Source: Nitrososphaeria archaeon (GTDB lineage Archaea > Thermoproteota > Nitrososphaeria_A > Caldarchaeales > JAVZCJ01). From it: a stretch of 64,000 bases of DNA. The DNA lies in assembly GCA_041862235.1 (NCBI GenBank), contig JBGVSY010000035.1, positions 16,479-80,478 on the forward strand. The letters are read 5' to 3'. Below are positions 12,869 through 45,766 of this stretch, in pieces. The position numbers and the translations under genes were made by a program. The notes beneath the pieces are model-generated. The model was not told the origin of the DNA and made no database searches. It saw only the letters and a list, made by a program, of their open reading frames with translations. Positions within the stretch are counted from its first letter, which is position 1. The number at the start of each line of letters is the position of its first letter.

Positions 12869-12992
12869 GGGCCCGTAGCCTAGAATGGATAGGGCGGCAG
12901 CCTCCTATCCTCCTTTGCGAGAGTCAGCTGCAGAGAGGTGGGACGAGCACCCCCTCGTGGAGATCGCGGGTTCAAATCCCGCCGGGCCCGCC
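12869..12992 (+). tRNA. tRNA-Arg (anticodon CCT, tentative), about 124 nt with two introns: a canonical one at 37/38 and a second in the variable-loop region
   Basis: Acceptor GGGCCCG pairs with CGGGCCC, then G and an encoded CCA. The D arm is GCCT/GGGC, the anticodon stem GCAGC/GCTGC, the loop CUCCUA, and the T arm GCGGG-TTCAAAT-CCCGC. There are about 18 extra nt after position 37 and about 29 extra nt between the anticodon stem and the T stem. Confidence 0.65.
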
Positions 12993-15950: not shown

Positions 15951-16994
15951 TTGGTAACGGGTATAGTCTATCACAAAGCATATCTCGCCCATGATTTGGG
16001 TTACGATCATCCTGAGAGGCCTGAGCGAATAGAGAACATACTCAAGGCGATGGAGGAGATCTTAGAGAGGCAGGACGTTACTCTCCTTGAGCCGAATCCA
16101 GCGTCAACGACGGATCTGTTGAGAGTTCACACCGCAGACTACGTGGCCAAGATACAGAGTATGAGTGAGACTGGAGGGGTTCTTACAATGGACACTCCAG
16201 TTCCACAGGGGGTCTACGAAACAGCGAGGCTGGCTGCTGGAGGAGCGATACTAGCTGGCGAGTCGGTTGTAGAGGGGAAGGTCGATAACGCGTTTGCGTT
16301 AACCAGGCCCCCAGGTCATCACGCTGGCAGAGCTTTTGGGGGAGGTTTCTGTTTCTTCAACAATGTAGCTGCAATGGTAGAGTACATTAGGTTTCGTCAT
16401 CACCTTGGGAAATTCGCTATTTTGGACTGGGATGTTCATCATGGAAATGGAACCCAAGAGATATTCAATCGTGACCCCGACGTACTGTACTTTTCAACCC
16501 ATCAGAGCCCTCTCTACCCGGGCACTGGAGCCATAGAACAAATTGGAGAGGGATCCGGTCTTGGATCCAAGATTAATGTTCCTCTTCACCCAGGGACTTC
16601 TGGAGCGTCCTTCAAATACATTTTGGCCGAGCTTTTCGCGCCGTTGGTGGAGCAGTTTAGACCCGACCTTATCGCTGTTTCAGCTGGTTATGACGCATAC
16701 TTTGATGATCCGCTTGCGAACCTGAACTTCACAATCGAGACTTATTCCTACTCAGCCAAGTTTGTCAAGGACTTGTCGGATAAGTTATGTGATGGAAGGC
16801 TTGCGGTTGTATTGGAGGGCGGATACAACCTACAGGCGGTTTCACTCGGTGTTCTTGCTACATTGTCTTCTATGCTTGGACTAGGAGACGTTGAGGAGCC
16901 CTCCACAACACCATCACAGGTTGTTGATGAGGTCGTCCGAAGAGAGGTCTCACACATTAAGGAAATTCTGTCTCCTTACTGGAACCTGCGGTGA
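15951..16994 (+). CDS. Histone deacetylase/acetoin-utilisation (AcuC) family deacetylase
   Basis: Motifs HPERPERI, RPPGHHA, FCFFNNVA, LDWDVHHGNGTQ and SAGYDAYFDDPL. Confidence 0.8.
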   Translation: MVTGIVYHKAYLAHDLGYDHPERPERIENILKAMEEILERQDVTLLEPNPASTTDLLRVHTADYVAKIQSMSETGGVLTMDTPVPQGVYETARLAAGGAILAGESVVEGKVDNAFALTRPPGHHAGRAFGGGFCFFNNVAAMVEYIRFRHHLGKFAILDWDVHHGNGTQEIFNRDPDVLYFSTHQSPLYPGTGAIEQIGEGSGLGSKINVPLHPGTSGASFKYILAELFAPLVEQFRPDLIAVSAGYDAYFDDPLANLNFTIETYSYSAKFVKDLSDKLCDGRLAVVLEGGYNLQAVSLGVLATLSSMLGLGDVEEPSTTPSQVVDEVVRREVSHIKEILSPYWNLR

Positions 16995-17665
16995 AGGCTG
17001 TCTGGTACGATGATTGGCGAAGAGTTCAAATACAGTATTTGGAAATGGATCTAGTGATGGGTTTGCCTTATGCTCGCCCCTACCACCCAACGTGGAATTG
17101 GGATCGCTGTCTGGATGACGTTAGGGGTCTCAACGGCCGTCTCGGTTTCCCGAGAGACAAAGCCGGTTGTCTGGCCTTCCTTGGTCTTAAGGTCTTGCCG
17201 GAAGAGAGGCTGGTTAAGGACTCTCTAGATAACCGCGCCGTTACCGATGATTCAGTGATACTCTCGCTTCTTCATCACTACTCGAAAGCACATCACCGTA
17301 GGTTAACAGGTACATTTGTTCCTTTTCGCAAGTTCTCAGGCGGCTCATCCTATCAACCAACATTTGGGAGACGCGTCTTGGACAAGATTTCACTTACGTT
17401 TGGTAGTCGCCCAGAGATGCTAGGCCCCGCTGCTGAGATGCTTGGGGGAGCAGAGACTCAGCTAGAAACCTACTCATGGCAAATCCCTGCACTTCCTCTC
17501 ATTCCGTTGACCATCGTCCTGTGGCCACAGAGTGAGGAGTTTTCCGCGTCCTCCAACGTACTGTTCGATTCCTCAGCAGATTCGTTTCTACCCACCGAGA
17601 TGCTGGTGCTTCTAGCTGAGTTGACGTCCGCTAGACTGAAGAAGGTAGCAGAGTACCTCGATTGA
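16991..17665 (+). CDS. Hypothetical protein translationally coupled to the deacetylase (ATGA overlap)
   Basis: 224-aa ORF whose start overlaps the upstream stop by 4 bp. No confidently recognised domain. Confidence 0.4.
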   Translation: MKAVWYDDWRRVQIQYLEMDLVMGLPYARPYHPTWNWDRCLDDVRGLNGRLGFPRDKAGCLAFLGLKVLPEERLVKDSLDNRAVTDDSVILSLLHHYSKAHHRRLTGTFVPFRKFSGGSSYQPTFGRRVLDKISLTFGSRPEMLGPAAEMLGGAETQLETYSWQIPALPLIPLTIVLWPQSEEFSASSNVLFDSSADSFLPTEMLVLLAELTSARLKKVAEYLD

Positions 17666-17919
17666 TGCACGTAGAACCAGCTATCGTCAATCGATAGAAT
17701 GTGTGCTCCATCCAAGCCCGGTGTTCACTCTAGCATTATCCACCGATCGATCGAGAGGTATGCAAGCAGATGGAACATATAGAGCGAGTGTTATACATGC
17801 CGTGGCGTAAGTCTCAGGGAGACCGAGGAGCCAAATCAACCAGACGAACAAACAGGTCGATCGATCTTCTTATAAGTTTTGATAGAAGAGCAATCGTTCG
17901 GCTGCTTGCGGGGAACCTG

Positions 17920-19359
17920 ATGAAGTTCGCGTTCATCCACCCTAGACCAGATCTAGAGACCCCTGACCCTGACAAAAGGAAGGCTCCCGCATCATGGCCT
18001 CCTTTAGGAATACTTTACATGGCATCGTTCCTCAGAGAACGTGGAGTTGATGTCTCGGTACTTGATCAAGCAGCCAGCACCATTTCTTTTAGTGAAACAG
18101 TTGGATGGGTAAAACGTCAAGACCCGGATATTCTGGGAATCTCAACGCTCAACAACTCCGGTCTTACAGCGGCCAGGATTTCCCGTGAAGTCAAATCCAT
18201 CAACGCAGATGTCGTCGTTGTATGGGGAAACGTTCTCGCGTCATTCAACGCAGAGAGGATCCTACGGGATCATCCATTTGTGGACATAGCGGTCAGAGGA
18301 GAGGGTGAACTAACTTCTCTCGAGATAGCTAGGTGTATGGAGAGAGGAGATGATCTAGAATCGGTCCGTGGGATCACGTTCCAAAGGAATAGACATGTGA
18401 TCTCTACGGAGGACAGGCCGCTTCTGAAGAATGTGGACTCACTTCCCCTTCCCGCTCGCGATCTGTTGGATGCGGAATACCATTCAGCAATCTTCGGGGT
18501 GCAGGTGGCGCCTAAGAGGTTCACGACTATGGTATCATCTCGGGGCTGCCCATACAGGTGTCGTTTTTGCGGTGGAAGCAGGCTGTTCCATAATGTTTGG
18601 CGACCTAGGTCAGTGGACAGCATAATGGACGAGTTGACGCTAATCGTTGATGAAGGATATCGCCAACTTCTTTTTGTCGATGACAATTTCACTTTGAGCC
18701 AAGAAAGAGTTGAGGACTTATGCAGGCGAATGAGGCGGGAAAGACTTGATCTCGAGTGGTTCTGCGACTCAAGGGTTGATCGTTGTTCAAGTCAGATGTT
18801 GAAGGAGATGGCGCGGTCAGGCTGCAAGATGCTCTACCTTGGGATCGAGAGCGCAAATCAAAGGATACTAGACTATTACAATAAGAGGATCACTCCATAC
18901 CAATCTGAGAATGCGGTTCAAACTGCGAGGGATGCTGGAATAGACGTGATCGTGGGTTCATTCATAGTGGGAGCTCCTGATGAGACTCGAGCGGAGATAC
19001 TTGACACTTTAAGGTTTGCTCATAATTTGGATATAGATATCGCGCAATTCAACATCCTGAGGGTATTTCCTGGAACAGAGATATGGGATGAGCTCAGAGA
19101 GAAGAGTCTGATAGACGAGGACAGGTACTGGGAGACAGGGATTTATGTGCCAGACATATGCTTTACTGCACAGAACGCAGAGGAAATGAAGCGTTTGATC
19201 TCGAATGTCTTCAGGGACTTCTATTTGCGGCCAAGGTTCATCCTGAGGCAGGGGGTAAGAACATTGACAAGTTGCTACCGTCTTCATGTGGTCGCCAGCA
19301 ACCTTCGAAGCGTAGGTGCGGTTAGGGAAGGTTTCAGCCAGGCGGCTGTTGCGTACTGA
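17920..19359 (+). CDS. B12-binding-domain radical SAM protein
   Basis: A CxxxCxxC cluster (SRGCPYRCRFCGG) preceded by an N-terminal Rossmann-like B12-binding region. The start is chosen at MKFAFIHP; the tracked ORF starts at 17770. Confidence 0.7.
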   Translation: MKFAFIHPRPDLETPDPDKRKAPASWPPLGILYMASFLRERGVDVSVLDQAASTISFSETVGWVKRQDPDILGISTLNNSGLTAARISREVKSINADVVVVWGNVLASFNAERILRDHPFVDIAVRGEGELTSLEIARCMERGDDLESVRGITFQRNRHVISTEDRPLLKNVDSLPLPARDLLDAEYHSAIFGVQVAPKRFTTMVSSRGCPYRCRFCGGSRLFHNVWRPRSVDSIMDELTLIVDEGYRQLLFVDDNFTLSQERVEDLCRRMRRERLDLEWFCDSRVDRCSSQMLKEMARSGCKMLYLGIESANQRILDYYNKRITPYQSENAVQTARDAGIDVIVGSFIVGAPDETRAEILDTLRFAHNLDIDIAQFNILRVFPGTEIWDELREKSLIDEDRYWETGIYVPDICFTAQNAEEMKRLISNVFRDFYLRPRFILRQGVRTLTSCYRLHVVASNLRSVGAVREGFSQAAVAY

Positions 19360-38709: not shown

Positions 38710-39717
38710 TCAGGGTCTGACTCCGCAGAGTATTGCGGTCAGTAGTGATGATGCGGTCAGGTCAGCTGTCGTTCCTGGGTTCAGTTCATTGCCAGCTGTA
38801 CGTAGCTCTTTATCAAACGCCTTTAGTTCCCGTTGTCCGTTGAGAGTTAAGAGTCCTCCTGCTTTCAGCACTTGGGACGCCCTCGACGACACCCTACGTG
38901 CTTCCTTCAAACCTATCTTTGTGGCGTGACGAATATCCTTTGTAAACCGTGTTCCAACTTTTCGTGCGATGAATGTATCTGGGACTCTATCCAGTATTGT
39001 AAGAAACGTGTGAACTGTGGCTGTGTTGATGTCGCCTGTGTCTCTATAGGTTTTGATGAAGGTAGGGCACCCAATCTCGAAAGTGATGCGCATGTCGCTT
39101 GTCCATTCTCTTGCTATGTTATCCCACTCGGCTGAGGTCTTCATGACTGCAAAAAGGGTGATCCCCTCTTTGGCTATCCTTGATTCAGCGTTCTTCTCGT
39201 TTAGGCTGGGAGCCATCAAGCTCTCTAATTCTCCTAAGCCAGCAGGTTTCGCAAGCCGGATTGCTCTGTAGACATCCAACGTGTCTTTTGTTGTGGTCGC
39301 GCGCACCACCTTTGCAACGTTCTTTCTAAGGGAGCGGATTGTCAGCTTGCCAGATGATGCAAACGTGAGACCCGCTGATGCTGCCAGAGGGATGAACAGT
39401 AGCGATACGCCTAGGTGTGTATTGCCTCCTCTGTGCCACGAACGAACATCGGAGACGGCCTTCTTGATGCAGTTCCCTAGGCCCAGTTCTTCCATTGATA
39501 TCTTACCTGAAGCCTCCAGAACTCCACGTTTGGCTGCTCGCCTCACTGCTGGACCAAGCGCGATTGATCCTGCTAAGAATTGTTCGAACCTAGTATCGGC
39601 GAAATCAGCCACTCTGTGCACGTTTCCCGGCTTTGGCCAGCCACTCACTTCTAGGGCGCCTGCCAGTTGAGCCGCCCGCATCACTTCATCTGGGAAACTC
39701 CGCAACCGTATCTGCAT
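38710..39717 (-). CDS. Triphosphoribosyl-dephospho-CoA synthase (CitG/MdcB) family protein
   Basis: GNVHR and NPGTTADL motifs, 335 aa. Confidence 0.7.
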   Translation of the reverse strand: MQIRLRSFPDEVMRAAQLAGALEVSGWPKPGNVHRVADFADTRFEQFLAGSIALGPAVRRAAKRGVLEASGKISMEELGLGNCIKKAVSDVRSWHRGGNTHLGVSLLFIPLAASAGLTFASSGKLTIRSLRKNVAKVVRATTTKDTLDVYRAIRLAKPAGLGELESLMAPSLNEKNAESRIAKEGITLFAVMKTSAEWDNIAREWTSDMRITFEIGCPTFIKTYRDTGDINTATVHTFLTILDRVPDTFIARKVGTRFTKDIRHATKIGLKEARRVSSRASQVLKAGGLLTLNGQRELKAFDKELRTAGNELNPGTTADLTASSLLTAILCGVRP

Positions 39718-40058
39718 CCGTTCCTCGCCGTTTCACGTTCTGTCATCTACCGCGATAGAATGGTCATTTATCCTTTTTGCGCCTCCCGTCTGTTTCTTGG
39801 TGTTCCTGACGGACATGCAATAAACGGGTTGTTCCAAACCTTTGAGGATTCGTTCTTGAAGCTTTGTGTAATGGTGAGGGGGTGGCATAGTATAGATAAA
39901 ACCTAAAGCATCGCTGTAACTATGTGGGCTAAGCTTCGACCTCAGAGATGACTGCCCATGACGAACACAAGGAAAGCTTAAACAAGACTCTCAATGGAGG
40001 AGCAAGAGGGAAGCGCGCTAGCATCGACCTTTGAAACACCTGAAAGAAGTGTTGCGGT

Positions 40059-41105
40059 GTGGGTGACTGGACGAAGTTTAAGCGGGTTATGGCTGCGGTT
40101 CAGTTGCGTGAAGCTGACCGCGTCCCCGTGGTTCCGCAGATAACCTACACCACTGCGCATATTGCTGGAGTGAATTTCTTAGATGGGTTAAAAGATCCTC
40201 AGACCATGGCGCGATTGCTGGTCACAGGTTTCCGGTTAGCTGGATATGACGGGGTCTATGTCGGTTGGGAGTCCTCTTTCGACCTTGTAGCAGAAGCTAT
40301 GGGATGTAAACTGGAGTTCAAGCCGGACGGGATACCGGTAGTGAGAGAAAGAGTCGTCAAGAACAAGGAAGACGTGAAGCTGTTGCAGGTAGTAGACCCT
40401 GAGAGCAGCGGCAGGATTCCGGTTCACCTTAAGGCCATTCAGCTCGTGAGAGAACAGATTGGAACTAGCGTCCCTATTTTCAGATATGTGCCAGGCCCAT
40501 TAACCTTAGCTGGCGCACTCATAGGGCCAGAAAAAATGTTGGTGAGTCTCATTAAGGATCCTTCTTTCATCCGCCAGGCCTTGGAACCCGCAACCGAGTC
40601 CACCATTAGATTTGCTGCTGCCGCTGTCAAGTATGGATCTGATATCATCGTGGTCGCTGATCCCATAGCTTCTACTACTGTGATCTCACCGCGAATGTTT
40701 AAGGAGTTTGCTTACCCTTCGTTGTGTCAAGTAGTAGAAAGAGTATTGGAGGTTGGAGGTATACCGTCTCTGCACATTTGTGGAAAGACAGAGTCCATAC
40801 TTGAAGAGATGACGCGTACAGGGAGCAAGATACTGGAGTTAGACCACTCGGTAGATCTTGCAGTGGCAAAGGCTAGGATCGGCACGCGAGTTTGCATCCA
40901 AGGTAACTTGAATCCAACCGGTGTCTTGCTAACAGGTGACTCAAAGGATGTCGAGGCAGAGTCTCGAATATGTATCGAAAAGGCTTCGAAGCACGGAGGG
41001 TTCATACTTAGTTCTGGCTGTGAAGTACCACTACGCGCGTCCCTGCAAAACATCAAGGCTATAGTCTCTGCTGCTGAGAGGTTTGGTGTTTATCGAGATG
41101 CCTAG
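40059..41105 (+). CDS. URO-D-family methylcobamide methyltransferase (MtaA/MtbA-like)
   Basis: Uroporphyrinogen-decarboxylase fold, 348 aa, directly upstream of a corrinoid protein and an MttB homologue. A likely start lies at 40089. Confidence 0.65.
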   Translation: MGDWTKFKRVMAAVQLREADRVPVVPQITYTTAHIAGVNFLDGLKDPQTMARLLVTGFRLAGYDGVYVGWESSFDLVAEAMGCKLEFKPDGIPVVRERVVKNKEDVKLLQVVDPESSGRIPVHLKAIQLVREQIGTSVPIFRYVPGPLTLAGALIGPEKMLVSLIKDPSFIRQALEPATESTIRFAAAAVKYGSDIIVVADPIASTTVISPRMFKEFAYPSLCQVVERVLEVGGIPSLHICGKTESILEEMTRTGSKILELDHSVDLAVAKARIGTRVCIQGNLNPTGVLLTGDSKDVEAESRICIEKASKHGGFILSSGCEVPLRASLQNIKAIVSAAERFGVYRDA

Positions 41106-41115
41106 GAACTTCATG

Positions 41116-41772
41116 AGAATGAAGGAGAATGAACTGTTCAGTGAGATTCGTCGAGCTGTGATCGGCTACGATGAGAAGACAGCCGTGCAAACTGTGAAGA
41201 AGACAGTGGAACTTGGAATGAGCCCCAAGCGAGTGTTGGAGGAGGCATTAATACCTGGCATACAGGAGGTCGGCACCCTCTTTGCTCAGGAGAGAATCTT
41301 CATACCGGAAGTCATGCTCAGCGCAGAAGTCTTCAGCTTAGCCATGAAAATAATCAAGCCTGCAATCCTTAGCAAGGGAGAAGAGGTGGAGAACCTTGGA
41401 ACCGTTTTGATAGGAACTGTTGCGGGTGATGTCCATGACTTGGGAAAGAGCTTGGTAGCCACCTTGCTTACGGTCGCGGGGTTCGAGGTGTTCGACCTGG
41501 GAATAGATGTCTCGACCGAACTGTTTGTTAAAAAAGTGAGAGAGCTAAACCCAGACGTTCTGGCACTAAGCGCTCTTATGAGCACGACTATGCTTGAACA
41601 ACGCGAGGTGATAAGAAGTCTGAAAAAGCAAGGACTGCGAGACAAAGTCAGAGTAATTGTTGGCGGCGCTCCAGTCACGAATGATTGGTCCACTCAAATC
41701 GGAGCGGATGGATATGCTCCTAATGCTCATGAAGCTGTTGAATTAGTTAAGAGAATTCTAAGAGAACGCTAA
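41116..41772 (+). CDS. Corrinoid (B12-binding) protein, MtaC/MttC-like
   Basis: B12-binding motif GDVHDLGKSLV (DxHxxG) with a downstream SALMSTTM and G-G motif. The tracked ORF starts at 41083, overlapping mtaA. Confidence 0.8.
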   Translation, partial: RMKENELFSEIRRAVIGYDEKTAVQTVKKTVELGMSPKRVLEEALIPGIQEVGTLFAQERIFIPEVMLSAEVFSLAMKIIKPAILSKGEEVENLGTVLIGTVAGDVHDLGKSLVATLLTVAGFEVFDLGIDVSTELFVKKVRELNPDVLALSALMSTTMLEQREVIRSLKKQGLRDKVRVIVGGAPVTNDWSTQIGADGYAPNAHEAVELVKRILRER

Positions 41773-41784
41773 CTGTGAATAAAT

Positions 41785-43254
41785 ATGGATGAGCGTGGTG
41801 TAAAGAATAGGCCCAACCTGAGGTTGCTGTCGAATGAGGTCATAGAGCGAATCCATGAGTCCTCTATTCGGTTGCTTGCGGACATAGGAGTAACAGTAGA
41901 AAGCCGTGAAGCTTTGGATATCCTAAGAGAAGGAGGTGCCAAGGTCGACGAAGTGAAGAGAAACGTAAAGATTCCTTCATCTTTAATCGAGGAAACATTG
42001 AGGAAGGCTCCTCATAGATTAACCATCTACAGCCGCGATAGAAGACATGATCTCAACCTTGCAGAAAACAACGTTTATTTTGATCCTGGATCAGCGGCTA
42101 TATCCATCTTTGATTATAGCAAGGCTTCACCAAGACCTCCCGCTCTCAAGGACGTAAAGGACTTCGCTGTTGTTGTGGATTCATTGAAGAATATTCATGC
42201 TCAAAGCACAGCACTAGTGCCAATGGATATGCCAGAGACTATGAGGGACAGGATTCGTCTCTATGTTGTTCTGAAGTACTCGACGAAGCCTATCGTAACT
42301 GGGGCCTTTACTGTTGATGGAATTTCAGACATGAAACACATGCTTGACATTGTTTCAGATAGCGGGTCAAAGAAGGCGGGGGCTATGGCTATTTTCGATG
42401 TTTGTCCGTCACCTCCCTTGAAGTGGAGTCACCTAGCTGCCAAGAATGTGATTGATTGTGCTGAAGCGGGTCTGCCCGTTGAGTTGGTCTCTATGCCCCA
42501 GATCTCGGCGACAGCACCAGCCACTCTCGCTGGGTGCCTAGTGCAACATAACGCTGAGGTGCTTTCAGGAATAGCGTTGGCTCAATTAGCATATCCCGGA
42601 ACACCAGTTATCTATGGGGGATCTCCCGCACTATTCGATCCGCGATACGGTACATCGGTAATGGGTTCTCCAGAAGTGTTACTTCTGTCCTGTGGATACG
42701 TAGATATGGCTAAACACTATGGACTACCCAGCCACGCCTACCTCGGTATGAGCGACGCCAAAGTGATTGATTACCAAGCTGGTTTCGAAAGCGCATTCGG
42801 GGCTTTGATGGGTGCTTTGAAAGGGATAAACATCATTTCTGGCGCAGGTATGATCGAGTTTGAGTCTTGTCAAAGTTTGGAGAAACTGGTGCTTGATGAT
42901 GAGATATGTGGTTATGTACATAGGGTTGCCACAGGCATCGACGTGACTGAGGAGACTCTAGCCAACCAAATCTTTCAAGAGTGTGTGGCAAAGGGACATT
43001 TCCTTTCACATAAGCATACAGTCAGGTGGCTAAGAAGAGAGCAATACATACCAAGTGAGTTGGTTGACCGCAGGGATAGGAGCATGTGGAGAGCTCTCGG
43101 TAGGCTTGATGCCCTGAAACGAGCACGAACACGAGTGGAACAAATACTCTCTGACCATCAACCGGAACCTCTAGAGCCCGACATCGAGAAAGAACTCACC
43201 CGTTTTGCCGTTTCGATCTGTAGATCACATGGAGTCCCCCGCCTGACACTCTAA
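41785..43254 (+). CDS. MttB-superfamily methyltransferase (trimethylamine/quaternary-amine:corrinoid methyltransferase family) without pyrrolysine
   Basis: Uninterrupted 489-aa ORF of MttB length and context, with no in-frame TAG. Confidence 0.7.
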   Translation: MDERGVKNRPNLRLLSNEVIERIHESSIRLLADIGVTVESREALDILREGGAKVDEVKRNVKIPSSLIEETLRKAPHRLTIYSRDRRHDLNLAENNVYFDPGSAAISIFDYSKASPRPPALKDVKDFAVVVDSLKNIHAQSTALVPMDMPETMRDRIRLYVVLKYSTKPIVTGAFTVDGISDMKHMLDIVSDSGSKKAGAMAIFDVCPSPPLKWSHLAAKNVIDCAEAGLPVELVSMPQISATAPATLAGCLVQHNAEVLSGIALAQLAYPGTPVIYGGSPALFDPRYGTSVMGSPEVLLLSCGYVDMAKHYGLPSHAYLGMSDAKVIDYQAGFESAFGALMGALKGINIISGAGMIEFESCQSLEKLVLDDEICGYVHRVATGIDVTEETLANQIFQECVAKGHFLSHKHTVRWLRREQYIPSELVDRRDRSMWRALGRLDALKRARTRVEQILSDHQPEPLEPDIEKELTRFAVSICRSHGVPRLTL

Positions 43255-43427: not shown

Positions 43428-45392
43428 GTGAGATCGTTAGTAACGAAGCTCAGCGCGGCCTTTCTTCTGGGCTTTTTTTGTCTAACGCCGCTGTTCAGAG
43501 TACGTGGAAAAGGATTGTTTGTAGATCAGTTAGAGCTCTCGGACTTGGAAGTAGAGGTCGTGACTTGGATCCAACCTCATACTGCACGGCCCCTCGCACG
43601 GTATGACGTGAAAGCAGAAGTAATTATGGAAGGCATGTTGATTGAGAAATCTACGGTAACCGATGACGACGGAAAAGCCTTCATACCAGCCTTGGTTTGG
43701 CTTGGGGCAAAGCTGAACATCTCCGTTAAACCCGAGAATGAGCTGGTGAACCCCGGAAGTGATTACCACCGTGAACTCCTCAAGAGTCAGGGAGTCGACT
43801 ATGTGGACAGGTCCAATGAGTCAGTAAAGAGCTCAGTGCCGGTTGAAAAGAAAAAGATTGCTTTGACCGTCGACAAGATCAGCCCCAACCTACCCTTTGA
43901 GGTTAGAGTGGATTACACGGCTGTCACTGCGGTTATCACGGATGCTCTTGGAAGACCCCTACCAGGCGCTTGGGTGGCTTTGGTGGATGTTTCAACCGGG
44001 CTCCTCGCCGGATGGTCGTACACAAATTGGTCTGGACACACCTCACTGATTAATGTTCCAGTCTCAGAGGGAGAAGATGGAGAGTACTCAGTCCAGGCTC
44101 ATTATCTTGGAGAAGGATTACAGGGAAAACCTGTCTGGCCATTCGGGGCTTATGGCGTTTGGCCCTGCATATATGATTCGTGGCTAGACGAACAGCTAAA
44201 CAAGTCTATCACGGTTTATGGTCTTTATGGAAGACATTTGAATATCACTACTCATGTCTATAAAACAGAGCTGAACTTCTTCTACGGGCGACGAATACCG
44301 ATAGATGTCTCAGTAGTTATTCATCCAAAACATCTCCGAATCGAGAATGTACGTGTTACTCAAGGAACCGTCGGGATAGAGAGGCTTCCCAGAGGACTTT
44401 ACGGTGTCACCGCAAAGTGGGCTGACATCGTAGTTGGTTCAGACAACGTGAACGTCACCAAAGTAGGGGGGGGTCACTTTCTCTTTGAGATGAATGTAGC
44501 AGTGTACGACCTGAACCTAACGATAAAGGATGCGGCAAACACTCACACAGTTCCAGATGTAGAGTGTGAAATACACGATCCGCTCGGAAGGATTACCTAT
44601 GCTGAGGCCCGCGCTGGTAGGCTGATAGTTCAAAGACTTCCGAAAGGGTACTATGCAATAACATTTAATTGGATTTCACCCTACACAGGTGAAAGGATAG
44701 ACATCGCTAGCTTCGCAGGGAACATATCATATTTAGCGTCAAACACGGAAATCTACACAAACACGTACGATGTTGCCTTTGCTGTGAGAGATGGAAATGG
44801 AAGGCCGGTGAGCGGAGTTACAATCATGGTGGGAAGGAGAACAAATCCAACGAATCCAATGGGCGAGGCTGTATTCACCCTCGTTCCCGCTGGAGAGTAC
44901 CAGGTGACGGTCTCCAAGGAACATATAGTCCTAGAAAAAAGGACAATTATCATACATTTCTCTTTCAGGAATTTCTCTTTTACCCTACCGAACTTGCTGG
45001 ATTTGAATGTGAAGGTAGTAGACCAAGAGGGTCGGCCAATTGATTCAGTCGTCGTCATGCTTAGGAAAGGTGACGAGATCGTCGCCTCCTCCAACACCAA
45101 CGAGCAAGGCTTGGCAACGTTAAGCCAGATGGTTGTAGACAACTACACTGTCGAAGCGACCTATGATCAGTTCACTGGAAAGCTTCTGGTAATGGCGCGG
45201 GAGTTCCACAAGTCAACTCCAATTGTAATAGAGTTGCCCTTGAGTCAGGGAACAGTCTCGACTACACAAACAACCACGATGGAAGGCGGACTCCCGGATG
45301 GAACCTTGGTCATCATTGCTGTGGTTGTAGTAGCGTTGGTACTCATCGTACTCGTCGTCTCACAACGGCTGAAGCGTACGGTTGCACCATAG
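43428..45392 (+). CDS. Cell-surface protein with a signal peptide, repeated beta-sandwich (CarboxypepD_reg-like) domains and a C-terminal transmembrane anchor
   Basis: N-terminal hydrophobic leader, recurring DGxG and VxVxV beta-rich repeats, and a C-terminal GTLVIIAVVVVALVLIVLVVSQRLKR. Confidence 0.55.
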   Translation: MRSLVTKLSAAFLLGFFCLTPLFRVRGKGLFVDQLELSDLEVEVVTWIQPHTARPLARYDVKAEVIMEGMLIEKSTVTDDDGKAFIPALVWLGAKLNISVKPENELVNPGSDYHRELLKSQGVDYVDRSNESVKSSVPVEKKKIALTVDKISPNLPFEVRVDYTAVTAVITDALGRPLPGAWVALVDVSTGLLAGWSYTNWSGHTSLINVPVSEGEDGEYSVQAHYLGEGLQGKPVWPFGAYGVWPCIYDSWLDEQLNKSITVYGLYGRHLNITTHVYKTELNFFYGRRIPIDVSVVIHPKHLRIENVRVTQGTVGIERLPRGLYGVTAKWADIVVGSDNVNVTKVGGGHFLFEMNVAVYDLNLTIKDAANTHTVPDVECEIHDPLGRITYAEARAGRLIVQRLPKGYYAITFNWISPYTGERIDIASFAGNISYLASNTEIYTNTYDVAFAVRDGNGRPVSGVTIMVGRRTNPTNPMGEAVFTLVPAGEYQVTVSKEHIVLEKRTIIIHFSFRNFSFTLPNLLDLNVKVVDQEGRPIDSVVVMLRKGDEIVASSNTNEQGLATLSQMVVDNYTVEATYDQFTGKLLVMAREFHKSTPIVIELPLSQGTVSTTQTTTMEGGLPDGTLVIIAVVVVALVLIVLVVSQRLKRTVAP

Positions 45393-45517: not shown

Positions 45518-45766
45518 ATGAGAGTTAAAGTGGTTCCTGCAGTGGGTGGGGGAGAGCCGCTTGAGCTTGAAGTGGCGCCTACAGCTACTGTGGCAGCCGT
45601 TAAGGCGAAGGTGTGCAGCATCAAACGTCTACCTGAGGATGTGACACGGCTAACCTACAGAGGACGAGCACTGAAGGAGACGGAGACCCTGTCAGAGATT
45701 GGTGTAGAGGATGGAGACAGGTTAGTTCTCCTCACTCGAACCGGCGGCGCGGCTTTACTTAGATGA
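45518..45766 (+). CDS. Ubiquitin-like protein (beta-grasp) ending ...TRTGG followed by a 5-residue tail (AALLR)
   Basis: Alignable along its length with eukaryotic ubiquitin: LEVAPTATVAAVKAKV against LEVEPSDTIENVKAKI, and RLVLLTRTGG against LHLVLRLRGG. Confidence 0.7.
   Translation: MRVKVVPAVGGGEPLELEVAPTATVAAVKAKVCSIKRLPEDVTRLTYRGRALKETETLSEIGVEDGDRLVLLTRTGGAALLR

Follow-up and report, generated by a model that had tools for sequence, protein, structure and literature searches.

A predicted three-protein corrinoid methyl relay with a non-pyrrolysine MttB homologue in a Nitrososphaeria archaeon

Three tightly packed methyl-transfer genes

We analysed a 64-kb stretch of DNA from a Nitrososphaeria archaeon (contig JBGVSY010000035.1; the whole stretch is called the window here) in which an initial annotation had read a methyl-transfer operon at 40059-43254. 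Three co-directional, tightly packed genes are present at these positions on the + strand. The first (40059..41105, +) encodes an MtaA-like protein of the URO-D family (348 aa; PF01208, E=3.4e-76) and the second (41083..41772, +) a corrinoid protein (229 aa; B12-binding_2, E=6e-18; B12-binding, E=1.3e-27). The third (41785..43254, +) encodes an MttB-superfamily protein of the non-pyrrolysine type (489 aa; PF06253, E=1.9e-97), which we presume to be the first methyltransferase (MT1). All three assignments proposed initially, to the URO-D family, the DxHxxG corrinoid proteins and the MttB superfamily, hold.

The packing of the genes is close throughout. The TAG stop of the URO-D gene (41103-41105) overlaps a candidate ATG start of the corrinoid gene at 41098 ('ATGCCTAG'), other candidate starts being TTG 41083 and GTG 41086, and 12 nt lie between the TAA of the corrinoid gene and the ATG of the MttB gene. 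This arrangement suggests that the three genes are translationally coupled. For the MtaA-like gene some gene callers take an alternative start, ATG 40089 (338 aa); we favour the GTG start at 40059 because homology to Methanosarcina mazei MtaA (4ay7) begins at residue 2. Upstream, a divergent intergenic region of 341 nt without a long open reading frame (ORF) lies between the operon and a CitG-like gene on the - strand and is the presumed promoter region (39718..40058). A scan for sigma-70-type promoters and terminators, which uses a bacterial-type consensus on an archaeal host, gave counts no higher than those in shuffled sequence.

We found the order URO-D, corrinoid, MttB in relatives whose MttB proteins are 88%, 79%, 60% and 53% identical to that of the window. 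In a second, independent assembly of the same population (Logan SRR29975709) both the order and the neighbouring genes are unchanged, and the same is true of the relatives at 88% and 79% identity. Since the gene order is kept in relatives, the three genes form a real conserved unit and are not chance ORFs. The three-gene operon is thereby confirmed.

An MttB homologue without pyrrolysine

The MttB homologue (protein MFB0568587.1) belongs to the COG5598/MttB superfamily, matching PF06253 with 326.8 bits (gathering cutoff 25) over profile positions 26-491 of 500. Its alignment with the solved MttB and MtgB chains runs over their full length and scores 256 bits for Desulfitobacterium hafniense MtgB (DhMtgB; 2qne, 9yce) and 236 bits for Methanosarcina barkeri MttB (MbMttB; 7xcl). 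With about 33% identity to DhMtgB and likewise about 33% to MbMttB, it is equidistant from the two.

The reading frame had been described as free of an amber codon and hence of pyrrolysine (Pyl), and this is borne out. Neither TAG nor any other stop codon interrupts the frame before its terminal TAA. The residue in the column of Pyl334 of M. barkeri MttB is Met322, encoded by ATG (42748..42750, +), as seen when 'LGMSDAK' of the window protein is aligned with 'AGSXSDAK' around X334 of 7xcl. Across 120 members of its clade this column holds Leu in 112/120 and Met in 5/120, and DhMtgB has Leu. TAG is the stop of 13 of the 38 long ORFs in the window, the MtaA-like gene included, so amber is an ordinary stop here; no pyl genes were found among the annotated ORFs of the 64-kb window. 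Against TIGR02369, the equivalog model for Pyl-type MttB, the protein scored 418.9 bits and fell under the cutoff of 525, compared with 399.8 bits for DhMtgB and 663.5 bits for a Pyl-type representative. We considered whether the TIGR02369 score places the protein nearer to true MttB and rejected this, as DhMtgB and other non-Pyl members score 400-490 bits. The protein is predicted to be neither a Pyl-type MttB nor an MtgB.

An exhaustive search of 50%-identity cluster representatives returned 8,604 relatives, 1,605 of them with E <=1e-30. From these we built a rough distance tree by neighbour joining (NJ) of 149 full-length sequences, made up of representatives, a few clade members, the query, DhMtgB and MbMttB, with the sequences of MtcB, MtpB, MtyB and MthB left out. 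The S-H/Q-S-E pocket signature described below occurs in 32 of the 149 aligned sequences, all within one NJ clade of 68 that contains neither DhMtgB nor MbMttB. DhMtgB falls among Y-R-type sequences, MbMttB beside a protein scoring above the MttB cutoff, and the core clade stands apart from both references in 40/40 NJ bootstrap replicates. The phylogenetic placement suggested by the initial annotation thus puts the protein outside the DhMtgB and MbMttB groups, these two being the only references used. A frame without an in-frame TAG and a position outside the Pyl-MttB clade (40/40) leave the non-pyrrolysine assignment standing. Together these comparisons indicate that the window MttB homologue belongs to a separate, large, mostly archaeal subfamily.

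One full-length 50%-cluster representative, P0268, scores 663.5 bits against TIGR02369 (cutoff 525), yet its pyrrolysine column is occupied by Trp ('GGWGDTK'). Either this protein is truly non-Pyl and closely related to MttB, or an error of gene calling has produced it.

Predicted substrate pocket

In MtgB, Tyr97 and Phe356 grip the quaternary nitrogen by cation-pi interactions while Arg312 and His348 grip the carboxylate, and activity of the R312L variant is not detectable (PMC13080624). An equivalent of Arg312 is conserved in all characterised non-Pyl members, namely MtcB, MtpB, MtyB and MthB (PMC13080624). In MttB, Gly110 and Tyr364 position a water bound to pyrrolysine (PMC9842639).

We mapped these positions onto the window protein and onto its 120 nearest MttB homologues, which are at least 47% identical to it and carry labels that include Bathyarchaeia, Jordarchaeaceae, Lokiarchaeia, Freyrarchaeum, Odinarchaeota and Methanomethylicia. 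Ser103 (42091..42093, +), beside a conserved Pro-Gly, corresponds to MtgB Tyr97 and MttB Gly110 and is Ser in 120/120 homologues. His317 (42733..42735, +) follows directly on the conserved 'YG[LV]P[ST]' and corresponds to MtgB Arg312 and MttB Tyr329 (His 118/120, Gln 2/120). Ser352 (42838..42840, +) corresponds to MttB Tyr364 and lies within one residue of MtgB His348 (Ser 112/120, Ala 8/120). Glu360 (42862..42864, +), found at equal spacing from the conserved 'AG' to the 'EK' anchors, corresponds to MtgB Phe356 and MttB Gly372 and is Glu in 120/120. Conserved motifs on the flanks anchor three of the four mappings. For His348 the column may be off by up to one residue, owing to a one-residue indel in MtgB, and the adjacent residues are Ile and Gly, none of them basic. 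The resulting S/H/S/E pocket is invariant or nearly so in the 120 homologues, which come from Bathyarchaeia, Asgard archaea, Methanomethylicia and Nitrososphaeria.

All four glycine-betaine contacts of MtgB are therefore replaced in the window protein (Y97S, R312H, H348S, F356E), and MttB Gly110 and Tyr364 are both replaced by Ser (Ser103 and Ser352). Because the pocket is without the MtgB contacts for glycine betaine, Arg312 included, glycine betaine, carnitine and proline betaine are all improbable substrates. These had been named as the most likely substrates, a proposal that the four replacements and the different clade (40/40) speak against. The accompanying claim that the substrate is not trimethylamine agrees with the missing pyrrolysine; its other half, a quaternary betaine instead, does not agree with an S/H/S/E pocket that has no Arg312. 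The definition of the S/H/S/E pocket as the putative signature of this MttB subfamily is an addition of the present analysis.

The corrinoid protein and the MtaA-like protein

The corrinoid protein carries the PF02607 and PF02310 domains (cap plus Rossmann). Its DxHxxG motif, Asp116-Val-His118-Asp-Leu-Gly121 ('DVHDLG'; 41428..41445, +), was read from the sequence, with the His as the predicted lower axial cobalt ligand, and corresponds to the His-Asp-Thr ligand triad of MttC (PMC9842639). The SxL motif is present as SAL at 163-165 and the GG at 194-195. The 229-aa ORF scored 215.1 bits against TIGR02370, the model for methyltransferase cognate corrinoid proteins, whose cutoff is 215.3. Among more specific models it scored 205 bits for MtbC, 195-198 bits for the MtgC models and only 128 bits for MtaC; the MtbC and MtgC equivalog cutoffs (310-370) were unreached. 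By these scores it appears most like the methylamine- or betaine-type carriers and not MtaC.

The MtaA-like protein has a predicted zinc site. Its His239-Ile-Cys241 motif (40773..40781, +) aligns with 'LHICG' of M. mazei MtaA, the His and the Cys each being conserved in 120/120 homologues, and 'SGCE' (41013..41024, +) with Cys321, the third zinc ligand, aligns with MtaA 'PGCG' (Cys 109/120, Asp 11/120). The MtaA-type zinc site includes an acidic residue besides these ligands, and Asp262 aligns with a Glu of MtaA. An H-x-C...C zinc site for thiolate alkylation is common to MtaA and MetE (PMC539065). The best NCBIfam match was TIGR01463 (mtaA_cmuA), with 224.8 bits against a cutoff of 235.4, followed by NF004889 (218.5 against 244), MtaA_Meth (193.8 against 400) and MtbA (154.9 against 600). 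The best solved relative was M. mazei MtaA (4ay7), with 148.9 bits, compared with 38.6 bits for the chloromethane MT1 CdmB. The identity of HemE was rejected: the protein scored 105.8 bits against the hemE cutoff of 303, and the zinc motif is present.

Since the protein matches MtaA better (149 bits) than CdmB (39 bits) and has the zinc site, we assign it the putative role of the second methyltransferase (MT2). The conserved zinc site supports action as a methyl-corrinoid:thiol methyltransferase and misfits a pterin acceptor. As this MT2 would be of the zinc/thiol type and not of the pterin MtrH/MtgA type, tetrahydrofolate is an unlikely direct acceptor.

Further evidence on the acceptor comes from the 120 best MtaA-like homologues, which are 46-96% identical and mostly without an organism label. 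No methanogen-labelled sequence was found among them; those that are named belong to Bathyarchaeia, Njordarchaeota, Atabeyarchaeum, Hodarchaeota, Nitrososphaerota and one Eremiobacterota bacterium. The same URO-D, B12, MTTB cassette is found on a bacterial contig (locus L105, 6001-9408), whose URO-D protein is labelled Eremiobacteraeota and whose neighbouring genes encode FTHFS, RNase III, Fur and a family-9 glycosyltransferase. The MttB protein of this contig is 47% identical to that of the window and has an S-M-H-L-S-E pocket. This bacterial cassette implies a probable inter-domain transfer of the whole unit. Bacteria generally are not known to have coenzyme M (CoM). As the cassette lies on a bacterial contig, CoM is not to be assumed as the acceptor, and it is possible only if the host is Mcr-positive. 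The initial annotation had offered CoM or tetrahydrofolate, and neither choice is upheld: a zinc thiol MT2 makes the latter unlikely, and the former is unproven given non-methanogen relatives and a cassette that is also bacterial.

Related MttB loci

We compared the window with 94 other loci of the MttB clade, at 41-88% identity and not all independent, and clustered the neighbouring ORFs of these 95 loci without prior assumptions. A corrinoid protein was a neighbour in 38 loci, MtrH (PF02007) in 9, a RACo-type activase (PF14574) in 9 and a URO-D protein in 6. Gene order is identical in the six URO-D loci, which are the window, L015, L023, L016 and L019/L020, the last pair being one contig counted twice. 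This suggests that a zinc MT2 is a minority solution confined to the sub-branch of the query.

The other sub-branches have different neighbours. In Bathyarchaeota-type loci (L021 3731-7109, L022 5019-8385, also L027, L030, L033 and L035) the MttB gene is flanked by genes for a DDAH/ADI-like amidinotransferase-fold enzyme, a small Rieske protein and a glyoxalase-family protein, with no adjacent corrinoid or MT2 gene, and the Methanomethylicia-type homologues (57% identical) stand alone. A saccharopine dehydrogenase-family gene abuts the MttB gene in seven loci (including L035, L043, L048, L070, L071 and L073), where the MttB homologues are only 34-81% identical to each other. The recurrence of this pairing suggests a functional tie to metabolism of the lysine or ornithine type. 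Other loci have an amidohydrolase, a class-III aminotransferase or an ornithine cyclodeaminase beside MttB. As a lead and not a result, the neighbours across the clade hint at amino-acid-derived N-methyl substrates.

In 11 loci of other sub-branches the corrinoid gene and MttB are separated by a gene for an unannotated protein of roughly 200 aa (motif 'APGFRGWEVEEQ'), whose family has no Pfam match at 1e-5. Examples are L078 4227-4835, L083 1257-1853, L089 2561-3166 and L099 4372-4974, with seven further loci; the family is absent from the window. It may resemble MetH-activation-domain-like proteins.

Host and genomic context

The host had been taken for a TACK archaeon, and this agrees with the NCBI label Nitrososphaeria archaeon and with near relatives labelled Aigarchaeota. 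The MttB, PGK, Cdc6 and URO-D proteins of the window recur unchanged in an NCBI metagenome-assembled genome labelled Nitrososphaeria archaeon, and a scan of species genomes with the MttB protein gave relatives at 41-46% identity only. Relatives of the window HisRS at 72-90% identity are labelled only Nitrososphaeria or Aigarchaeota (one of them 'Aigarchaeota archaeon'), beyond which identity falls to about 50% (Thaumarchaeota, Aigarchaeota, Caldarchaeum). The host is a TACK archaeon of a sparsely sampled lineage. The remaining window genes are housekeeping genes, among them those for FtsZ, PCNA, Cdc6, HisRS, PGK, GGGP synthase and glycosyltransferases, and the roughly 15 kb past the window ends hold only housekeeping genes and an aldehyde:ferredoxin oxidoreductase gene.

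We found none of mcr, mtr, hdr, pyl, cdh, RACo or MtrH among the genes of the 64-kb window, and no mcr, mtr, hdr, pyl, Wood-Ljungdahl or CoM-biosynthesis genes in the window or its flanks of about 15 kb. A tblastn search of the window with the RACo representative of locus L040 gave no match. These results bear on two earlier statements. The operon had been called a full three-component system; the three components are present, but the window holds no RamA/RACo-type activase, which nine related loci do have. Methylotrophy, also proposed, is plausible, although the window and flanks lack mcr, mtr, pyl and Wood-Ljungdahl genes.

Divergent from the operon lies a gene for a CitG-family protein (38710-39717, -; PF01874, E=6e-74). 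The curated models for CitG and MdcB, with cutoffs of about 270-280, gave it only 34-43 bits, so it is probably no true triphosphoribosyl-dephospho-CoA synthase. A link between this gene and the operon was rejected: synteny is found only in relatives at 79% identity or above, and we found no literature tie to cofactor biosynthesis. The gene directly downstream of MttB (43428-45392, +) encodes a protein of 654 aa that has a signal-like segment at its N-terminus, then CarboxypepD_reg and Ig-like repeats, and a membrane anchor at its C-terminus. A CarboxypepD_reg protein also comes after the MttB homologues of Methanomethylicia (L012-L014), but it has no BLAST similarity to that of the window. 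A functional link to MttB was rejected as coincidence, synteny again being limited to relatives at 79% or above.

Further downstream (45518-45766, +) is a ubiquitin-family protein of 82 aa (PF00240, E=6e-14) whose C-terminus reads '...TRTGG-AALLR'; as in precursor ubiquitins, five residues come after the Gly-Gly. Its gene stands beside a DUF5752 gene, an arrangement kept in relatives L001 and L015, and no E1/E2 genes were seen nearby. Three genes stand together at 15951-19359 (+): one of the histone-deacetylase family, one for DUF3786, these two overlapping by 4 nt, and after them one for a B12-binding radical SAM protein. DUF3786 as an accessory of the corrinoid system was rejected: the PF04060 FeS protein near the L019 cassette shows no relationship to it (E=0.31), and no useful literature was found. 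The sole Rfam match in the window is a tRNA (12869-12990, +) that spans 122 nt, which implies an intron.

Discussion

Our data suggest a three-protein corrinoid relay that carries a methyl group from an N-methyl ammonium compound to the corrinoid and on to a thiol by way of a zinc MT2, a reading to which we give a little better than an even chance. The MttB-superfamily TIM-barrel MT1 would bind the N-methylated ammonium compound and hand one methyl group to Co(I) of the corrinoid protein, from which the zinc MtaA-family MT2 would shift it, as methyl-Co(III), to a zinc-activated thiol. The substrate may be a methylamine-type compound read by the clade-specific Ser103/His317/Ser352/Glu360 pocket, as opposed to trimethylamine captured by pyrrolysine. 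Should the lineage possess Mcr, which some Nitrososphaeria have, the acceptor would be CoM; if not, it would be a different thiol, for example homocysteine. The reductive activase would have to come from a gene elsewhere in the genome. Read directly here are the genes and their motifs, the membership of the clade, the substitutions in the pocket and the conservation of the cassette; from these we infer which way the methyl group moves, which protein is MT1 and which MT2, the class of substrate and the acceptor.

Several points weigh against this relay. The roles of its members are predicted from gene sequences. The pocket mapping leans on an alignment of about 33% identity, with the His348 column placed to within one residue. 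The MtaA-like protein is under every NCBIfam MtaA and MtbA cutoff, and we infer its MT2 role in a family that also has MT1 enzymes. A URO-D partner is found in only 6/95 loci and MtrH in nine others, which shows that the MT2 is not fixed across the clade. Finally, neither the window nor its flanks hold an activase, transporter, mcr or CoM-biosynthesis gene.

In the likeliest of the alternatives the host would have Mcr and live by methyl-reducing methanogenesis in the manner of 'Ca. Methylarchaeales', and the operon would methylate CoM from a methylated amine on the way to methane. Mcr-bearing Nitrososphaeria that carry mtaA with mttBC exist (PMC6783470, PMC9478090, PMC10833072), a zinc MtaA-type MT2 beside MT1 and corrinoid genes is a methanogen-style architecture (PMC6855144), and the flanking gene for aldehyde:ferredoxin oxidoreductase hints at an anaerobic host. 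This possibility is nevertheless doubtful given the absence of mcr, mtr, hdr and CoM-biosynthesis genes from the window and flanks, HisRS relatives that are labelled only Nitrososphaeria or Aigarchaeota before identity drops to about 50%, and a cassette that also occurs in a bacterium and has no methanogen-labelled MtaA-like match among the best 120, most of them unnamed.

We think it unlikely that the cassette is mobile between domains, being found in Nitrososphaeria, unassigned archaea and an Eremiobacterota-type bacterium, and carries out chemistry new to the superfamily with a carboxylate-free substrate and a thiol other than CoM. If this were true, a protonated tertiary or secondary methylamine held on Glu360 would amount to pyrrolysine-independent methylamine activation, or the substrate would be an N-methylated basic amino acid, and the methyl group could go to homocysteine to give methionine.

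It is also conceivable, if quite improbable, that the URO-D protein is a second MT1, acting on a methoxylated aromatic, a methylthiol or a halomethane and sharing the corrinoid protein, with the MT2 (for example of the MtrH type) encoded elsewhere. The URO-D family has amply documented MT1 enzymes, some of which contain zinc, among them the veratrol and vanillate O-demethylases, CmuA and CdmB (PMC13222342); TIGR01463 spans both MtaA and CmuA, and MtrH is the partner in the nine loci mentioned above. The score to MtaA is, however, far above that to CdmB, the full MtaA/MetE-type thiolate-binding zinc motif is conserved, the window has no MtrH, and a strict 1:1:1, apparently translationally coupled cassette across domains fits a single pathway better. 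There is equally little probability that the operon encodes a betaine-type quaternary-amine demethylase for glycine betaine, carnitine or proline betaine that feeds CoM or tetrahydrofolate: all characterised non-Pyl MttB-superfamily enzymes do use trimethyl- or dimethyl-ammonium compounds (PMC13080624, PMC12155760), DhMtgB is the top solved match and the corrinoid protein gains 195-198 bits on MtgC models, but those scores are far under the cutoffs, the protein is as close to MttB as to MtgB and in a different clade, the four contacts are replaced with the Arg312 whose loss abolishes detectable MtgB activity (PMC13080624) changed to His, and an MT2 that is not pterin-binding argues against tetrahydrofolate as the direct acceptor.

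These findings reach beyond this locus. Non-Pyl MttB homologues number in the thousands and only six substrates are known, the non-Pyl ones all being acidic quaternary amines; papers on TACK and Asgard genomes routinely read such genes as 'quaternary amine or TMA methylotrophy' (TMA, trimethylamine). Since the pocket of this subfamily is without the carboxylate-binding Arg and the aromatic pair, this customary reading is probably mistaken across the subfamily as a whole, which offers a well-defined target for substrate discovery. The sub-group with the zinc MtaA-type enzyme, one member of which is bacterial, makes a thiol acceptor outside methanogens a testable question, and the identity of the thiol decides between methane production, energy metabolism and biosynthesis. 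This apparently cross-domain, URO-D-bearing cassette is the second addition of the present analysis.

Comparison with known systems

The three roles proposed here are those of the glycine betaine:CoM methyl-transfer pathway MtgB-MtgC-MtaA of Methanolobus vulcani B1d (PMC6855144), which likewise combines a non-Pyl MttB-superfamily MT1, a DxHxxG corrinoid protein and a URO-D-family zinc MT2. The window MT1, however, is without the glycine-betaine-binding residues and belongs to another clade, and the MT2 is encoded within the operon and is only distant kin of methanogen MtaA. The window host is not known for CoM or methane, and a RamM/RamA activase was not found in the window.

The best solved-structure match is the MtgB of the D. 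hafniense MtgB/MtgC/MtgA system (2qne, 9yce; PMC13080624), which is also non-Pyl, with Leu where the window protein has Met. Its Y97, R312, H348 and F356 are S103, H317, S352 and E360 in the window protein, and its MT2, MtgA, is a pterin-binding tetrahydrofolate methyltransferase, unlike the URO-D zinc type predicted here. The M. barkeri MttB/MttC/MtbA system (7xcl; PMC9842639) shares the superfamily, and its MT2 is also of the URO-D family. M. barkeri MttB and the window protein have in common an 'SM' (Met249) and the 'SDAK' after the Pyl column, but the latter lacks pyrrolysine (Met322) and has Ser for both Gly110 and Tyr364.

The Eubacterium limosum enzymes MtcB, MtpB, MtyB and MthB, with MtqC/MthC and MtqA/MthA, likewise combine a non-Pyl MT1, a corrinoid protein and an MT2 (PMC8604678, PMC12155760). 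They act on acidic quaternary amines, keep the Arg312 equivalent that is His in the window protein, and have an MT2 that methylates tetrahydrofolate.

Also comparable within the Nitrososphaeria are 'Ca. Methylarchaeum tengchongensis' JZ-2 bin_220 and 'Ca. Methylarchaeales', which belong to the same class, have reported mtaA, mttB and mttC (PMC6783470, PMC9478090, PMC10833072) and are likened here by that reported gene set. They are without pyrrolysine machinery, as here, but their genomes carry mcrABG. The mtrH-mttB-mttC(-RACo) clusters of Culexarchaeia, Freyarchaeia/Atabeyarchaeia and Brockarchaeota represent the same archaeal non-Pyl MttB group (PMC9723716, PMC11291895, PMC8065059), and our matches labelled Jordarchaeaceae, Lokiarchaeia, Freyrarchaeum and Bathyarchaeia, at 50-53% identity, all have the S/H/S/E pocket. 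In those clusters the MT2 is the pterin enzyme MtrH and the activase is often encoded, whereas the window operon has an MtaA-type zinc enzyme. The initial interpretation as a whole is partly supported. Non-Pyl MttB clusters have been repeatedly reported in metagenome-assembled genomes of TACK and Asgard archaea, and the window operon is one more of these.

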